Assembly (NCBI RefSeq): GCF_056712565.1
Contig: NZ_CM160072.1
Direction: 5' to 3' (one strand)
DNA: 64,000 bases
Shown piece by piece: positions 28,999 through 47,744 of this stretch; position 1 is the first letter of the stretch, and each line of letters begins with the position of its first letter. The position numbers and the translations under genes are program-made. The notes under the pieces are model-generated. The model had not been told where the DNA came from, made no database searches, and saw only the letters and a program-made list of their open reading frames with translations.

Positions 28999-29016
28999 TT
29001 TTTCTCCCTTATTGGC
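28999..29016 (+). promoter_or_regulatory. BaeR box upstream of mdtA (tttttctcccttattggc)
   Basis: Matches the BaeR consensus TTTTTCTCCATDATTGGC as I recall it, ~55 nt upstream of the mdtA start. Confidence 0.6.
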
Positions 29017-36517: not shown

Positions 36518-37933
36518 ATGACAGATCTTCCCGACAGCACCCGCTGGCAATTGTGGATTGTGGCTTTCGGCTTCTTTATGCAGTCGCTGGACACCACCAT
36601 CGTTAACACCGCGCTTCCCTCAATGGCGCAAAGCCTCGGGGAAAGTCCGTTGCATATGCACATGGTCATTGTCTCTTATGTACTGACCGTGGCGGTGATG
36701 CTGCCCGCCAGCGGCTGGCTGGCGGACAAAGTCGGCGTGCGCAATATTTTCTTTACCGCCATCGTGCTGTTTACTCTCGGTTCACTGTTTTGCGCGCTTT
36801 CCGGCACGCTGAACGAACTGTTGCTGGCACGCGCGCTACAGGGCGTTGGCGGCGCGATGATGGTGCCGGTCGGCAGGTTGACGGTGATGAAAATCGTACC
36901 ACGCGAGCAATATATGGCGGCGATGACCTTTGTCACGCTGCCCGGTCAGGTCGGGCCGCTGCTTGGCCCGGCGCTCGGAGGTCTGCTGGTGGAGTACGCA
37001 TCGTGGCACTGGATCTTTTTGATCAACATTCCGGTGGGGATTATTGGCGCGATCGCCACACTGATGTTAATGCCGAACTACACCATGCAGACGCGGCGCT
37101 TTGATCTCTCCGGCTTTCTGTTGCTGGCGGTTGGCATGGCAGTCTTAACCCTGGCGCTGGACGGCAGTAAAGGTACAGGTTTCTCGCCGCTGGCGATTGC
37201 TGGCCTGGTCGCAGTTGGCGTGGTAGCACTGGTGCTTTATCTGCTGCACGCCCAAAATAACAACCGCGCCCTGTTCAGTCTGAAACTGTTCCGCACTCGT
37301 ACCTTTTCGCTGGGCCTGGCGGGGAGCTTTGCCGGACGTATTGGCAGTGGCATGTTGCCCTTTATGACACCGGTTTTCCTGCAAATTGGTCTCGGTTTCT
37401 CGCCGTTTCATGCCGGACTGATGATGATCCCGATGGTACTCGGCAGCATGGGAATGAAGCGAATTGTGGTACAGGTAGTGAATCGCTTTGGTTATCGTCG
37501 GGTACTGGTGGCGACCACGCTGGGCCTGTCGCTGGTCACCCTGTTGTTTATGACTACCGCTCTGCTGGGCTGGTACTACGTTTTGCCGTTCGTCCTGTTT
37601 TTACAAGGAATGGTCAACTCGACGCGTTTCTCCTCCATGAACACCCTGACGCTGAAAGATCTCCCGGACAACCTGGCGAGCAGCGGCAACAGTCTGCTGT
37701 CGATGATTATGCAATTGTCGATGAGTATTGGCGTCACCATCGCCGGGCTGTTGCTGGGACTTTTTGGTTCGCAGCATGTCAGCGTCGACAGCGGCACCAC
37801 ACAAACCGTCTTTATGTACACCTGGCTTAGCATGGCGTTTATCATCGCCCTTCCGGCGTTTGTCTTTGCCAGAGTGCCGAGCGATACGCATCAAAATGTG
37901 GCTATTTCACGGCGAAAAAGGAGCGCGCAATGA
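36518..37933 (+). CDS. mdtD: MFS transporter MdtD
   Basis: 471-aa ORF with 14-TM MFS pattern. Confidence 0.93.
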
Positions 37934-40564: not shown

Positions 40565-40571
40565 TTACGAT

Positions 40572-40606
40572 GCCGGGCGTAGGTTGTTGGCGTCCGGCTT
40601 TATATC
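40572..40606 (+). terminator. Putative intrinsic terminator after yegP
   Basis: Imperfect GC hairpin gccgggcg...cgtccggc followed by tttatatc. Confidence 0.4.
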
Positions 40607-40688
40607 AAAATAACGCTTATTTATTGATAATTAAGATTAACCTCCGTCATTAAAATAATGAGTAAATAAGTTTCAGTATCAGAATTTA

Positions 40689-41303
40689 TCACGCCCCACA
40701 ATCACCAATCTGATCCACCACCGTCAGATACCAGTCACTGTCATAACTGTAAAGTTGACTTAAATAAAATACCAGTCCATCGTTACTCTCTTCTGGCGCA
40801 GCGACCACACGCACGGCCCCGTATTCCATTCGACGCGCTGCGGCAATCTGCGCATCAGAAATAGTATTTTGCGGTGAACCAAACATCTGCGTGAAGACCA
40901 AACTACGGCTGACTTTATGGTGAACATCGCTATTGCTAATAAAATACCCCTGCTTATTCCAGCCACGTTCGCAGTTAAATTTCGGGATAGCTTTCTTATT
41001 AAATTCGTCATCTCGCGGAACATGTTCCCCTGCCGAGGGCCATGGGAAATACTCGGGAACAGGTTGCCTGAAATTAATTTGCTTAAGATTTTCAACATCC
41101 ATCGAAGCACCACGGTGGAAAAGAACATACAAACCCGTTTTTTTATCAATTAACGAGTTGATTAATTGGGCATCTTCTTGCTGAAAGCCCATAATCACCT
41201 TTCTGGCTGTTTCCTCCAGCGTACACCCGGCATTGGCGGGTAAAGAAAAGAATATCAGCCCCACCAGCATCATTCCTTTTTTTAACATCAGCATTGTTTG
41301 CAT
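40689..41303 (-). CDS. Accessory island gene A: secreted/periplasmic protein of unknown function (signal peptide, AXA-type cleavage site ANA-G)
   Basis: 204-aa ORF MQTMLMLKKGMMLVGLIFFSLPANAGC; last gene of a four-gene minus-strand operon; no family recognised. Confidence 0.55.
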   Translation of the reverse strand: MQTMLMLKKGMMLVGLIFFSLPANAGCTLEETARKVIMGFQQEDAQLINSLIDKKTGLYVLFHRGASMDVENLKQINFRQPVPEYFPWPSAGEHVPRDDEFNKKAIPKFNCERGWNKQGYFISNSDVHHKVSRSLVFTQMFGSPQNTISDAQIAAARRMEYGAVRVVAAPEESNDGLVFYLSQLYSYDSDWYLTVVDQIGDCGA

Positions 41304-41354
41304 CTTCTCATCATGGGGCTCATATTACACATTTAACAATTTTCAGGATAAACC

Positions 41355-43463
41355 TTACACCATACTGTTAACCTGGCCGGGTAATTCGCTAGCTGGAATA
41401 CGAAAGGTATACCAGGCATAACGACAGCGTTTCCACAGGCTGGAGAAATGGAGATGATAAAGGCAATCTGCAATAATTTCGTTATCTGGATATAAAGACT
41501 CGGCAAAATGTGTCCAGCGCGCACTGAGTTTCATGTTAAACAGTTTTTCATCTTCTTTGTTACCATACAGGCGCGACAAAGTAATCATTGCTTCGAGCGT
41601 ACCTTTATTCGCTTCTTCTTGTACCTGTTGGAGGTGCAAATGAGCAAGTGAGAGTTCTTTCACCTCAAAGATATTAAGTAAAAAAAGCCCCCATGCTTTT
41701 TCATGTCCAGCTTCATGAGCCAGAAATAAATTGTCAAGGAGATTTTTTTCATAAATAGCCCGTGTTTCTTTAGAAATTTCTTGTTTATTTAGTGCCTGGT
41801 AGCAGATAGCAATGCTAAAATAAATATTTTGTAGATCTTGTTGATGTTCGCTATAACCATAATTTTTTACCAGTGGATAAGATACCGAGCTATGGAAATT
41901 TAGGTCATCTTGAAGTATTTTAAGTGCCCGTCGAAAATACTCCAAAGCTGTAGATGGTTCATAAGGTAATTTTGTATTGTCTTCCTTATCCAAATATTCA
42001 AGAGCAACTAAATTTAATGCGGCAGGAATATTTCTTTGCTTACCAATTGTCGCAAGCGGAATGAAATAATCAGAAAGGTCAAACCAACTCAAATCTTTTA
42101 TTGCCGACCGCCAATTATGATTGTATTTAATGTCACTAGCTTTTTCCAGCCAAGCATCGCCCTGCCCTTCATCTTTTTCAAAACCCAAAATACCCTCTCG
42201 CTGGAAAAACCCCCTATAAATAACAGGTGTAGCATAAGTTGTATTCTGTGAATTTTGGCAGATAAAATTATATATCCAGAATGAATCTGGATAATAACTT
42301 AATGCAAATTTTATCGCGTACGCAGTGTAATAATTATTGAGCTTCATGTCTTCCATCACCGCTCGCTGTATACAGCACCACAACTTATCGTGATCGTTCT
42401 GCTTGTTATAGCAGGCAAGTAACCACTCTAGGGCATTATGGCGACATTCCTGAAATTGTGCGTACTGAGCAATATTCTCTGCTAAGTCGATTGCATATTG
42501 TTGCTCCTCGGGCGCAATGTCCTCAATGCTGACATCTCGGTAATCATCCCACCAAAGTAAGAGATCCATATAGTCATGTTCTTCGGTAGATAAGTGCTTA
42601 CAGGTTACTGAATCCAGCAATTCGGAAATTTCTTTATGCGACCCTCCCCAGCGTGGCATTCGAAATGGTATATATTCAACAAAAGGATAAAAAGTGTGAG
42701 GAAAAATAGTCAGGCAAACAGAAAGCCAATATTTTTGCCCACCATCATCATCATACTCAGGAAGTATATTGGGGCGAGGCAAAACGGGGCATATTGCATG
42801 CTCAAACGAAAGTCCGGAATACGCCATCAACGCTTCCACTTCTTGCGGGGAGCGGCGGTGATAATTTTTCAGTGCGATCATTAATGGTATTCCTGCGACA
42901 CTATCACCGTTAAGGTGTGCCGCCAGCCAGGCTGGCTGACCAAATACTTTTGAGTTGGTGCTGGTAAGTAATGCAGCCATCCATTGTCGTGGGTCACAAT
43001 CAATTGCTTTAAGTGTAGCGATGACCATTTGTTCATTACATGCACCAGCACAAAGCCACATTGCATGTGTGGTATCATTTGCCCAGCCATAACTGCGATA
43101 TAACCATGCACGGTGATTCCAGTATTGTGCTTCGGCAAGCCAGGCATGTGTAGAATGAGGTCTTGCTTGCTGCCAGGTTTTAATGAGTCTTAAACCTTCT
43201 GTTCCGGCATCAACTAGCGTGTTCATATCATAAAAATAGTTGCACATTTGGGTCCAGGATAAAAAATAGCGCTTTTCAGCCTGACGAGAAGTGAAACTCT
43301 CCTGTAATACCTGGTTATAAATTTCATCTAGTTCCTGATAACGTTTTTCTTGTAACATATAAGGAATATTTGCGATTTGCCATTTTCTCTCAAGAGTATT
43401 AAGTGGCATTTTTTGGTCACACATCTTTTGCATTGCACTGAGTAAACGAGCATCCTGTTCCAT
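41355..43463 (-). CDS. Accessory island gene B: large (~700 aa) Trp/Tyr-rich cytoplasmic protein of unknown function, possibly helical-repeat
   Basis: ORF 41355..43502; start set at MEQDARLLSAMQKM, which has an AAGGA Shine-Dalgarno and leaves a 10-nt gap after gene C; no family confidently recognised. Confidence 0.55.
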   Translation of the reverse strand: MEQDARLLSAMQKMCDQKMPLNTLERKWQIANIPYMLQEKRYQELDEIYNQVLQESFTSRQAEKRYFLSWTQMCNYFYDMNTLVDAGTEGLRLIKTWQQARPHSTHAWLAEAQYWNHRAWLYRSYGWANDTTHAMWLCAGACNEQMVIATLKAIDCDPRQWMAALLTSTNSKVFGQPAWLAAHLNGDSVAGIPLMIALKNYHRRSPQEVEALMAYSGLSFEHAICPVLPRPNILPEYDDDGGQKYWLSVCLTIFPHTFYPFVEYIPFRMPRWGGSHKEISELLDSVTCKHLSTEEHDYMDLLLWWDDYRDVSIEDIAPEEQQYAIDLAENIAQYAQFQECRHNALEWLLACYNKQNDHDKLWCCIQRAVMEDMKLNNYYTAYAIKFALSYYPDSFWIYNFICQNSQNTTYATPVIYRGFFQREGILGFEKDEGQGDAWLEKASDIKYNHNWRSAIKDLSWFDLSDYFIPLATIGKQRNIPAALNLVALEYLDKEDNTKLPYEPSTALEYFRRALKILQDDLNFHSSVSYPLVKNYGYSEHQQDLQNIYFSIAICYQALNKQEISKETRAIYEKNLLDNLFLAHEAGHEKAWGLFLLNIFEVKELSLAHLHLQQVQEEANKGTLEAMITLSRLYGNKEDEKLFNMKLSARWTHFAESLYPDNEIIADCLYHLHFSSLWKRCRYAWYTFRIPASELPGQVNSMV

Positions 43464-43473
43464 AGATATCCTT

Positions 43474-44190
43474 TTAATTAGGTTCAAAAATTTTAAATTC
43501 ATTCCACGGCAATTTTTTCCAGTTACTGGATGGATCTTTCAACCATGCAGTGACTTCCTTTAAATCACGGTTCGCAGTGGCGACGGGGGTATCGTATATC
43601 ATTAACCATTTTTGTCGGGCGCGAACATAAGCACTGGCATAATCTTCCCATGAAGCGAAACAATCTTGTGCTCTTTGAGCATTCAGTAATAACACTATCC
43701 AGGCCTGGTTTTCATCGCACCAGCCTAAACCGGCGATGCAACGAGTTAAAAAAGCAGTGCGCATACAGTCAAACGCCAGCCCATCCAGAACCTGGCCTTG
43801 TGCTGCCAGTTGTTCGTAAAAATCATGTGGAGAATTACCAAGCCCTGTAGCCCAGCGCTGTAATATAACGCCAATTTGTTGACGGAAATCTTCGTTGCTT
43901 TGGTAAGTTTCTGTTCCTAGCTCTTGTTTAACCTGTAGTGCAAGTTGTTGACGCTTATCATCAGTCAACTTTAAATCTAACGTGAAGCCATTTACTGACA
44001 GTCCATTACGACGAGCAACTATATCACCAATTGCTAATGCCCACTTACGTCTCTTTGTTGCTCGTCTTTTGTCCTTGATTAGATCCTTTTCTTTTTCTTT
44101 AGCAATAAAAGCATCGATTTGTGGTTTGTTTTTTTTGTATCTATAGATAAAAATAAATATTGCGACCAGGAGAACAATGATAAGACTCAT
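43474..44190 (-). CDS. Accessory island gene C: single-pass membrane-anchored protein of unknown function (possibly DUF1266-like, unverified)
   Basis: 238-aa ORF; N-terminal TM helix MSLIIVLLVAIFIFIY then soluble domain; start ATG shares one base with gene D stop (TAATG). Confidence 0.55.
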   Translation of the reverse strand: MSLIIVLLVAIFIFIYRYKKNKPQIDAFIAKEKEKDLIKDKRRATKRRKWALAIGDIVARRNGLSVNGFTLDLKLTDDKRQQLALQVKQELGTETYQSNEDFRQQIGVILQRWATGLGNSPHDFYEQLAAQGQVLDGLAFDCMRTAFLTRCIAGLGWCDENQAWIVLLLNAQRAQDCFASWEDYASAYVRARQKWLMIYDTPVATANRDLKEVTAWLKDPSSNWKKLPWNEFKIFEPN

Positions 44191-45404
44191 TATTTTTCAA
44201 CCTCTGACAGGGGTAAGTAATGAGATGTCTGTAATGTCAAACTCTCTATCTCAAAGGAAATGTTGCTGATATTTTGACCTGCAAATTGCGGATGCCACTC
44301 AGCGCCAGGGAATAACATTTCCGCAGAAGTAGCAACTATAGGGTCAATAGCATTAAGATAATGTAACTTATCAGGTGCGCTGTGTAACAGTAACCACTGC
44401 AACTCCACTGAAGGATTTGTAAAATGTTCTAATAAATGAAAGTTATTATGTAGTACGCTTAGTAAAAAACTGGTTTCGTATACTTCCGTTACATATTTCC
44501 ACCCCTGATATTCAGGTGTATTTTCATAAACAATACCCATACCTTCACAATCACTATGTCGAACTGCTTGTGGTGATAATAGTTGCAAAAGAGACAAAAC
44601 ATCGTCCGCATATTTTTTAACTGGATGACGATTTTGCTTACCTTTTATTTGATCAATTTCAAGTGAATCACCAACAACATTGAGAGCAATAGTAACATGA
44701 GGAATATTATTATTATCACGCAAACTGAATAACCGTAATTTATGTTGCTCAATTTGATTTGCATAATACTCACCATAACCACCGGTAAGATTTTTTCGAT
44801 CATCAAACTGGCCTACGCAATGTTGCATATGCCATGATTCATAAGCCATTTCACGACGAAGGTTCGAATGACTGGCATCAAACTCAACAATTTTTCCGTC
44901 TGGCACATCAAGTATTGACTTTACAGTATTTTGTTCACTCGGCTGCCACCCTTTCTCGCGTCGTTGAAGCATCTTTTCATGCTCTTCTTCACGCATTCTG
45001 AACGCAACGTAGCAGGTTATGCGCTGTAGTTTTGATTCCAGACGGGTACCACATTTCCTGGAAAGAAATTCCACCAACTCCCGTTCTTTGGTTAATATTT
45101 GTTGATGATCGGTTTCGATATAATAAAGTGTCGCAGTTGATACTGAGGCAGTATTAAACTTCGATACCAGCCATTCCGGGATTACATCATCATTTTTATT
45201 AAACAGTGAATATTCTGCAAGCGAGTTAATTTGTTGCACCATTGGAAAGTCACTAATTAGCCATCGATAAAAATGGTTGAGTAACCATTTTTGGATGGTC
45301 TCATTATCCTGGCGAAACAGACTTCTTTGCAAAATTGCTGTTTTTACTTCCGGGGCATTAATTACATCCCTTGCATTATAATTCTGGTGAATATTTCCAG
45401 TCAT
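44190..45404 (-). CDS. Accessory island gene D: 404-aa cytoplasmic protein of unknown function (possible PcfJ-like domain around WHMQHCVGQ; unverified)
   Basis: First gene of the operon; AT-rich codon usage; motif ESWHMQHCVGQFDDRKNLTGGYGEYYANQ. Confidence 0.55.
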   Translation of the reverse strand: MTGNIHQNYNARDVINAPEVKTAILQRSLFRQDNETIQKWLLNHFYRWLISDFPMVQQINSLAEYSLFNKNDDVIPEWLVSKFNTASVSTATLYYIETDHQQILTKERELVEFLSRKCGTRLESKLQRITCYVAFRMREEEHEKMLQRREKGWQPSEQNTVKSILDVPDGKIVEFDASHSNLRREMAYESWHMQHCVGQFDDRKNLTGGYGEYYANQIEQHKLRLFSLRDNNNIPHVTIALNVVGDSLEIDQIKGKQNRHPVKKYADDVLSLLQLLSPQAVRHSDCEGMGIVYENTPEYQGWKYVTEVYETSFLLSVLHNNFHLLEHFTNPSVELQWLLLHSAPDKLHYLNAIDPIVATSAEMLFPGAEWHPQFAGQNISNISFEIESLTLQTSHYLPLSEVEK

Positions 45405-45891
45405 AACATCCGCCCGTGTTTATTATATCACTCAAAGCAATAATTGTTGACTATAGATTTTTTATCTAAATCAGCATGGTTGCAGGTACATACTCAAGTA
45501 AGCCACTCAAGAAAATAACGTAAACTCAATAGTGGCAGCGTCACAAACTTTGGAAATTATGTCTTATATTTGCAGTTTATTTTAGTGAATAATTGAGATA
45601 AATGACATTATTTTACATCCTCAATAATTCAGGCTGTAAGAGGACGGCAAATACATTCATAATTATCAGGGGATGAACATTCAGGAAAGTAGTCAGTATC
45701 GTCAACTTTTTCTTTTATCACTACATGAAGATTTCGTGTAGATACTCCCATCTCTGCCACTTCTCCCCTCACATTTACACTGGAGCTAAACCCGCCGATT
45801 GCGCTACAATGCCCGCCCTTAAAGTGGGGGCACTCCCCTAACCGCTTCATCAGGTGAAGCGGCTCTGACCTGTCATCAGAACGAGAGAATT

Positions 45892-47525: not shown

Positions 47526-47744
47526 TTACATCCACATAATTTGCTGCCCTGACGGCAACGGGTGCGGTCTTACGGCGTGGACTTCTCCCGGCTTCACGAT
47601 GTATCGCTGTACCGACTCATAAGTGATGAATGTGGCGCTGCAATTCACGTTCTGACACTGGTGATAACGCTCTTTTGTCGTGTCAGTGATATAGCGGCTT
47701 GTACGCGCATGTGCGGCATGCTGGCATAAAGGACAATGAAACAT
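47526..47744 (-). CDS. ogr: P2 Ogr-like zinc-finger late transcription activator
   Basis: ORF 47526..47807; start set at MFHCPLCQHAAHARTSRYITDTTKERYHQCQNVNCSATF (~72 aa, Cys4 motif). Confidence 0.85.
   Translation of the reverse strand: MFHCPLCQHAAHARTSRYITDTTKERYHQCQNVNCSATFITYESVQRYIVKPGEVHAVRPHPLPSGQQIMWM

Follow-up and report, generated by a model that had tools for sequence, protein, structure and literature searches.

Do the four genes that lie between yegP and yegQ in some strains of Escherichia coli form a single operon whose products cooperate across the cell envelope, or have two unrelated units come to stand side by side? We address this question for a stretch of 64,000 nucleotides (hereafter the window; contig NZ_CM160072.1 of RefSeq assembly GCF_056712565.1), whose sequence matches E. 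coli DSM 30083 / ATCC 11775 at 100% and in which the gene order is mdtD-baeS-baeR-yegP, four minus-strand genes, yegQ (trhP) and a P2-like prophage. The four genes read D-C-B-A from the yegQ side, and an original prediction, made from the letters of the sequence, had described them as one operon spanning cytoplasm, inner membrane and periplasm. Here, we propose that two independent units make up the island, a reading of its composite architecture and its topology to which we assign a probability of roughly 60%. D-C-B would be a module of three proteins, conserved in Gamma- and Betaproteobacteria, that assembles at the inner membrane on its cytoplasmic side, with C tethered by an N-terminal helix and its DUF1266 domain in the cytoplasm. 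Gene A would encode an unrelated exported protein, cleaved by signal peptidase I (SPase I) and probably disulfide-bonded.

Gene A and the yegP-yegQ site

Gene A is found at the same chromosomal site without D-C-B. It lies between yegQ and yegP in E. whittamii and on one metagenome contig, and in seven E. coli genomes a divergent allele (86-87% nucleotide identity over the compared stretch) adjoins yegQ, with a HEAT-repeat gene present and D-C-B absent. In Klebsiella sp. MISC125 the gap between yegQ and baeR holds two tandem A paralogues and a small tetratricopeptide repeat (TPR) protein, a layout repeated on a metagenome contig. The tandem paralogues are about 200 amino acids (aa) each, both with signal peptides (L003, 216-2321; L101, 6001-8336), and the gene beside them, on the opposite strand, encodes an exported-looking protein of 237-240 aa with weak TPR matches. 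Further A relatives, in Leminorella and a Prevotellaceae genome, stand in unrelated gene contexts. The reverse also occurs, D-C-B being found without A in Klebsiella, Salmonella and Burkholderia. Relatives of D were sought by profile in one genome per species (100,044 species) and confirmed at 139 places, 80 of which entered a linkage analysis with custom hidden Markov models; an A-like open reading frame (ORF) lay within 6 kb at none of these 80 D-containing loci of other species.

The junction is equally informative. About 134 nt of the yegQ-proximal intergenic DNA are common to this strain and the loci with A alone, after which the sequences diverge, and homology restarts at the A start codon. 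What lies between, a segment of this strain listed in Table 1, stands in place of about 75 nt that comprise the native promoter-like sequence of A and its TAAGGAG ribosome-binding site. Because A occurs alone at the same site, accompanies D at none of the 80 other loci and has had its promoter replaced at the junction, we take A to be an independent resident of the baeR/yegP-yegQ site, outside the conserved module. A would already have been resident next to yegQ before D-C-B arrived, and the arrival would have cost A its own promoter and ribosome-binding site in this lineage. Because of that loss, expression of A now probably depends on read-through out of D-C-B or on a weak promoter at the junction.

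The predicted destination of A also sets it apart from the module. Its start is at 41294 (MLMLKK..., 201 aa) according to the RefSeq Prokaryotic Genome Annotation Pipeline (PGAP) and to its homologues, not at 41303. Signal and membrane-segment assignments for all four proteins were rule-based and backed by conservation; in A the signal is of the Sec type, its n-region carries a charge of +2, the h-region has 12-14 residues, and a Pro at -5 precedes A-N-A and then G. The AxA site is retained in homologues as ATA, ASA, ACA or CAA, and export signals are found in 53 of 53 full-length family members. Cys108 and Cys199, invariant across the same 53 relatives, fit a periplasmic disulfide. Processing as a lipoprotein (SPase II) was considered and rejected since the lipobox [LVI][ASTVI][GAS]C is absent, with Asn at -3, and enterobacterial homologues have R, L, H or P where A has the Cys after ANAG; lipobox-like sites do occur in some distant relatives, probably from Bacteroidota.

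The A family is narrow, with 20 clusters recovered by single-sequence search and 74 by profile among 5.8 billion proteins. Its members are mostly from Enterobacterales, joined by metagenome relatives (one from Prevotellaceae) with Bacteroidota-looking signals, and they share many invariant polar residues. The mature domain has no match in Pfam, NCBIfam, PHROG or PDB, and its structure model, built from a 9-sequence alignment, is of low confidence (predicted local distance difference test score, pLDDT, 52.6). Some A alleles are frameshifted (P0009, P0016 and P0018; E. coli and metagenome variants) and the B gene of K. oxytoca is broken into two ORFs, 349 and 291 aa long (L024, 7916-10033), so that both units decay in some lineages.

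The complete island is present in 297 of 5,426 complete E. coli genomes, its carriers including CFT073, Nissle 1917, 536, UM146 and avian pathogenic (APEC) strains. In the other E. coli sampled, the yegP-yegQ site is mostly empty or holds a ParDE toxin-antitoxin pair; across the species the cargo of the site (40565-45891 of the window) is none, ParDE, or the divergent A with a 466-aa HEAT-repeat protein (L006, 3848-5248). The site behaves as a variable hotspot, though neither direct nor inverted repeats flank it and no gene for an integrase, recombinase or transposase marks its boundaries. A literature search returned nothing on a yegP/yegQ hotspot or on the (guessed) CFT073 locus tags.

Gene linkage and predicted topology of D, C and B

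The confirmed relatives of D come from Enterobacterales, Burkholderiales, Pseudomonas, Lysobacter, Chitinilyticum and Zoogloeaceae, with single cases in Rhizobium and Desulfovibrionaceae. At 79 of the 80 loci analysed, a DUF1266 gene or domain follows D directly (70) or is fused to it (9), and the one exception is cut by a contig end. A third large protein is nearly always present, the few loci that have none being mostly cut by contig ends as well. In type I loci (D-C-B; 28 loci, including all enterobacterial loci resembling this island) it is a DUF4034 protein encoded downstream, and in type II loci (X-D-C; about 48) it is an unrelated protein X of 770-860 aa encoded upstream; neither BLASTP nor hhalign found homology between B and X. 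Fusions tell the same story: 12 of 40 D relatives from a library of 1.84 billion proteins are fused to DUF1266, one protein combines D with DUF1266 and TPR (P0106), one D with TPR (P0118), and two carry ankyrin repeats. These fusion proteins are strong evidence that D, C and the repeat partner act together in one compartment. Both triad types are found in one genome in Serratia sp. DD3 (L021, L057) and in Burkholderia paludis MSh1 (L034, L084), and this coexistence suggests that the two types are not redundant.

Gene C, whose start overlaps the D stop (TAATG), matches PF06889 (DUF1266) with 68.7 bits against a gathering score of 27, its orthologues are annotated DUF1266, and the family alignment holds the invariant motif LAFxCxRxAF...AWxVLLLNAQRAQDxFxSW. 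In the protein, a charged linker joins the N-terminal membrane anchor to a DUF1266 domain predicted to be cytoplasmic. The anchor shows the marks of an N-out, C-in inner-membrane helix, being hydrophobic (Kyte-Doolittle mean of 3.39 over residues 1-15), biased towards positive charge inside (no charge before the segment and 4 K/R in the following 15 residues) and conserved. Among 70 stand-alone C genes adjoining D in other species, with the start codon taken as the most hydrophobic option near the D stop (a mild bias), the mean over an N-terminal window of 15 residues is 1.6 or more in 66, and 2.0 or more in 54; this hydrophobic window is placed at residues 1-11, and 1-8 K/R come after it, mostly 3-7. 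Conservation in 66 of 70 orthologues means that the anchor is not a chance feature. The original prediction had pointed to this hydrophobic helix and the basic stretch behind it, as well as to the signal peptide of A with its ANA-G context and no obvious lipobox, and all of these are borne out, as are its coordinates and sequences.

The charge pattern predicts that the DUF1266 domain of C is cytoplasmic, and the fusions agree. If the soluble domain faces the cytoplasm in this way, the D-C-B module does not cross to the periplasm. Type II fusions have two short hydrophobic runs around a K/R-S-L-G-L-P turn, with K/R on both flanks, which we interpret as a putative hairpin that would bring the chain back to the same side; no hydrophobic linker is seen in type I fusions or in several library proteins. 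Given these hairpin and anchorless forms, membrane tethering is common and not obligatory. No hydrophobic segment or signal peptide was found in D or B.

D passes the PF14284 (PcfJ-like) threshold only marginally (26.2 bits against a cutoff of 25), and 35 of the 40 D relatives match the same family, the best with an E-value of 1.1e-17. An AlphaFold2 model from a 40-sequence alignment (pLDDT 88.3; predicted template-modelling score 0.73) shows a GNAT-like alpha/beta core between two helical regions, one N-terminal and one C-terminal, with a secondary-structure order of b-b-a-a-b-b-b-a-b-b in the core (residues 161-304). The conserved positions of the core are E189, H195-C196-x-G198, H236, T238, Q252-x-K-G-K-Q-N258-x-x-P261, Y265 and D285, of which E189, H195-C196, H236, T238 and Y265 are near-invariant in the family. 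In the model the top-conserved motif, Q252-I-K-G-K-Q-N258-x-x-P261, sits in the b4-a3 loop, which in GNATs is the place of motif A, the coenzyme A (CoA) pyrophosphate motif. Set against the motif A pattern Q/R-x-x-G-x-G/A, the near-invariant Q252-I-K-G255-K-Q257-N258 has Q and not G/A at the last position.

Foldseek searches with the D model returned GNAT-like folds weakly (best E-value 0.029). Against the viral models of BFVD, five phage PcfJ-like models came first with E-values from 3.5e-14 to 2.2e-7, so D shares a predicted fold with annotated PcfJ-like proteins, and viral acyl-CoA N-acyltransferases came next at 0.015-0.13; the phage PcfJ-like proteins that share the fold are mostly large, at 460-1400 aa. 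Pfam Acetyltransf_* models matched none of the 40 relatives at E-values up to 10. A GNAT-like fold of D is moderately supported by the model, and acyltransferase activity is possible, if doubtful. A papain- or transglutaminase-like Cys-His-Asn triad (C196, H236, N258) was also considered and is not supported, the fold searches having returned GNAT-like and not papain-like structures. Should the GNAT-like core be right, it would extend to the phage PcfJ-like proteins.

B is a DUF4034 protein (PF13226; 339.7 bits against a cutoff of 21.3, E-value 1.7e-101, domain positions 2-274 of 274), and its PGAP start is backed by a Klebsiella orthologue. Its C-terminal half aligns with YbeQ and YbeT (hhalign probability 79-90%) and may consist of Sel1-like repeats. 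Sequence and profile searches of the PDB with A, B, C and D gave nothing significant.

Possible functions and alternative explanations

If D, C and B act together at the inner membrane, what might they do? Our best guess is a membrane-tethered modifying enzyme complex. D, with its PcfJ-like, GNAT-resembling core, is the likely catalytic subunit, and B, with DUF4034 and probable Sel1-like repeats, the likely scaffold or target-recognition subunit. D would transfer an acyl group, or carry out some other Cys/His-dependent modification, on a membrane-proximal protein or lipid, in an arrangement that would resemble that of a catalytic GNAT subunit held in place by a large subunit of helical repeats. 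Tentatively, and against what we would consider the better odds, D-C-B and its X-D-C sister form could be a hitherto undescribed but widespread proteobacterial system in which DUF1266 holds a PcfJ-like enzyme of GNAT-type fold, with an unusual His-Cys centre, at the inner membrane and a large repeat protein directs it to modify a membrane-proximal target.

Such a covalent-modification system, if real, would be either a new immunity or conflict system or a new modification in envelope biogenesis, and it would provide a first biochemical entry point both to the PcfJ domain that phages and plasmids carry and to the DUF1266 proteins that partner the chaperone HscC. No function is known for PcfJ-like, DUF1266 or DUF4034, three families that are nevertheless strictly linked as a unit, and the carriers include uropathogenic and probiotic E. 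coli (CFT073 and Nissle 1917), Salmonella, Klebsiella, Burkholderia and Pseudomonas. The predicted inner-face location, the GNAT-like core of D and the DUF1266/Sel1 parallel on the HscC side make concrete experiments possible. Correcting the operon picture also leaves A as a separate family of exported proteins that merits its own study.

Several points weigh against the composite reading and the functions that we attach to it. A directly follows D-C-B on one strand, no terminator is predicted in between, and A might have acquired a functional link with D-C-B that is specific to this lineage. The helix of C is short (15-17 residues) and could be monotopic instead of membrane-spanning. We infer complex formation by D, C and B from linkage and fusions, and the conserved His-Cys pair of D is not canonical GNAT chemistry. 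Finally, the literature search yielded no experiment on any component.

D-C-B might alternatively be an anti-phage or anti-plasmid defence acting by abortive infection, in which the repeat protein senses, D signals or modifies, and anchored C or D kills or arrests the cell. This we judge unlikely. Sensors built on repeat proteins, like small membrane proteins, are recurrent parts of defence systems; the E. coli site is variable, with ParDE among its occupants; the GC content of the island is low (0.36-0.46, the flanks having 0.53-0.57); phage proteins commonly have the PcfJ-like fold; and two triad types coexist in some genomes. However, the parallel with defence effectors drawn in the original prediction found no support in PADLOC-DB 2.0, where only B gave a match (PDC-S32, at a chance-level E-value of 0.0013 over 80 residues) and D, C and A gave none. 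Nor was there a match in PHROG, a fitting NCBIfam model or, among 50,697 phage genomes, a homologue of D, and the plasmid records with D are exclusively non-mobilizable, chromid-like replicons of 0.3-1.3 Mb. The module occupies the same baeR-yegQ position in Klebsiella and Salmonella, and its neighbours in other taxa are housekeeping genes and not defence islands. With no membrane segment in about one third of the fused forms, membrane disruption is unlikely as an effector mechanism.

Quite improbable is the view that A and its neighbours make up a set of secreted toxin and immunity proteins, or an orphan periplasmic immunity set in which A counters an envelope-targeting toxin. The small size and export of A would suit an immunity protein, as would its narrow family, its variability between lineages (about 86% nucleotide identity to the alleles of A alone), its tandem paralogues at two loci and its decay by frameshift in some strains. 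Against this, Pfam, NCBIfam and PHROGs revealed no toxin domain or known immunity family nearby, and no secretion-system gene is found among the neighbours, so the toxin/immunity parallel put forward earlier found no support. The many invariant polar residues of the A family fit an enzyme or a binding protein as well, and the structure model of A is too poor to be used.

That D-C-B-A is, after all, one four-gene operon cooperating across cytoplasm, inner membrane and periplasm, either in envelope assembly or stress or as a secreted factor with its helpers, is in our view very improbable. The four genes share a strand and lie close together (a 1-nt overlap for D/C, 10 nt for C-B and 51-60 nt for B-A), no terminator was predicted between B and A, and the 99-100% identical A allele is always accompanied by D-C-B in E. 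coli (295-297 genomes). These observations are outweighed by the occurrence of A alone at the same site in E. whittamii, the seven E. coli genomes and Klebsiella sp. MISC125, by the lack of A at all 80 D-C loci elsewhere and beside D-C-B in Klebsiella, Salmonella and Burkholderia, and by a junction that places D-C-B on the promoter of A. In addition, with DUF1266 predicted to be cytoplasmic, no part of D-C-B would contact the periplasm. The compartments of the predicted operon stand (D and B cytoplasmic, C anchored, A exported), and its unity is not supported, A being independent. The suggested tie to envelope stress fares no better: a consensus scan that allowed up to 3 mismatches found no BaeR box close to D or A, and the sole match in the window, at 28999-29016 (+) with one mismatch, presumably belongs to the mdtA promoter and serves as a positive control.

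It is most improbable of all that the N-terminal segment of C is a cleaved or uncleaved signal that makes DUF1266 periplasmic like A, since its position at the extreme N-terminus and its length of 15-17 residues, nearer a signal h-region than a typical transmembrane helix, are offset by the lack of a positive n-region (most orthologues have 0 K/R ahead of it) and of an AxA-type site, by the K/R cluster directly after it, by fusions of DUF1266 to the signal-less D through a non-hydrophobic or hairpin linker, and by the signal-less K-12 paralogues YbeR and YbeU.

The features of the island, as we read it as two units, are collected in Table 1. Upstream of D, the window contains about 360 nt of AT-rich unannotated DNA (45405-45768) that arrived with D-C-B and holds the best promoter match, and a 73-aa ORF (45629-45850) not called by PGAP. 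In the flanks, the P2-like prophage (ogrK, late control D, tail and tape-measure genes) begins at 47526 (-), directly past yegQ on the side opposite the island, and mdtD (36518-37933) is given as 401 aa with a later start in RefSeq and as 471 aa by the ORF and the CFT073 annotation, which is probably a difference in start-codon annotation.

Table 1. Genes and predicted elements of the island, with positions in the window.
Feature	Position	Strand	Details
Gene D	44190..45404	-	RefSeq "PcfJ domain protein"; 404 aa
Gene C	43474..44190	-	RefSeq "DUF1266 protein"; 238 aa
Gene B	41355..43463	-	RefSeq "DUF4034 protein"; 702 aa, PGAP start
Gene A	40689..41294	-	RefSeq "hypothetical protein"; 201 aa, exported, unnamed family
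GNAT-like core of D, aa 161-304	44493..44924	-	Predicted model
Membrane anchor of C	44143..44190	-	MSLIIVLLVAIFIFIY, residues 1-16, then RYKKNK; predicted N-out, C-in
DUF4034 domain of B	42546..43376	-	Residues 43-319 of long ORF
Signal peptide of A	41229..41294	-	MLMLKKGMMLVGLIFFSLPANA, cleavage before GC, SPase I type; rule-based and family conservation
Segment of this strain absent from loci with A alone	41295..45768		~4.5 kb, holding D-C-B and ~360 nt AT-rich DNA; junction alignments
Candidate sigma-70 promoter of D-C-B	45422..45450	-	TCAACA, 17 nt, TG-TATAAT; ~18 nt upstream of D ATG; consensus match only, 10/12 + TG

Comparison with known systems

Published work offers little to compare with, as our literature search found no papers on DUF4034, one incidental mention of DUF1266 and nothing functional on PcfJ, and the papers on ybeU, ybeR and hscC are silent on DUF1266. 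The mildly hypermotile Salmonella deletion of STM2133 was not used as orthology to D, C or B could not be confirmed.

For A, the natural comparison is with periplasmic proteins exported by Sec and cleaved by SPase I, with which it shares a tripartite signal, A-x-A at -3/-1, Pro at -5 and two invariant cysteines, but its mature domain fits no family of Pfam, NCBIfam, PHROG or PDB. D resembles the PcfJ-like (PF14284) proteins of conjugative plasmids and phages in passing the Pfam threshold and in its model match (E-value 3.5e-14). Unlike the phage proteins, it is chromosomal, 400 aa long, locked to DUF1266 and without a homologue in the phage collection. The pairing of a GNAT with a helical-repeat subunit in eukaryotic NatA (Naa10-Naa15) and in Hat1-Hat2 offers an analogy for mechanism, not membership; in contrast to GNATs, D has no sequence-level GNAT signal, only an approximate motif A (QxxGxQ) and an atypical His-Cys pair.

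The closest architectural parallel is the ybe cluster of E. coli K-12, where two DUF1266 genes overlap their partners (ybeR with djlB and ybeU with djlC), each pair stands beside a Sel1-repeat gene (ybeQ and ybeT), and the Hsp70 gene hscC is adjacent. C is related to YbeU at 31% over 75 aa (E-value 1.5e-4), and a profile of the C family finds YbeU at 7e-8. As in this island, a DUF1266 gene is translationally coupled to its partner, a helical-repeat protein is near and one subunit is membrane-anchored. The anchors of K-12, however, are the C-terminal hydrophobic tails of DjlB and DjlC and the N-terminal segment of YbeT, with neither anchor nor signal in YbeR and YbeU, whereas here the anchor is on the DUF1266 protein itself. 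The partner in the island is PcfJ-/GNAT-like and not a J-domain protein, and the order is partner-then-DUF1266 in D-C, as against DUF1266-then-partner in the ybe cluster. With no J-domain or Hsp70 gene in the island, the likeness to the HscC/DjlB/DjlC cluster is one of architecture only. By this analogy, the two systems would be variations on a recurring theme, in which DUF1266 is combined with a helical-repeat protein and a variable third protein, one of the three being membrane-tethered, and in which a PcfJ-like protein here takes the place of the J-domain protein.

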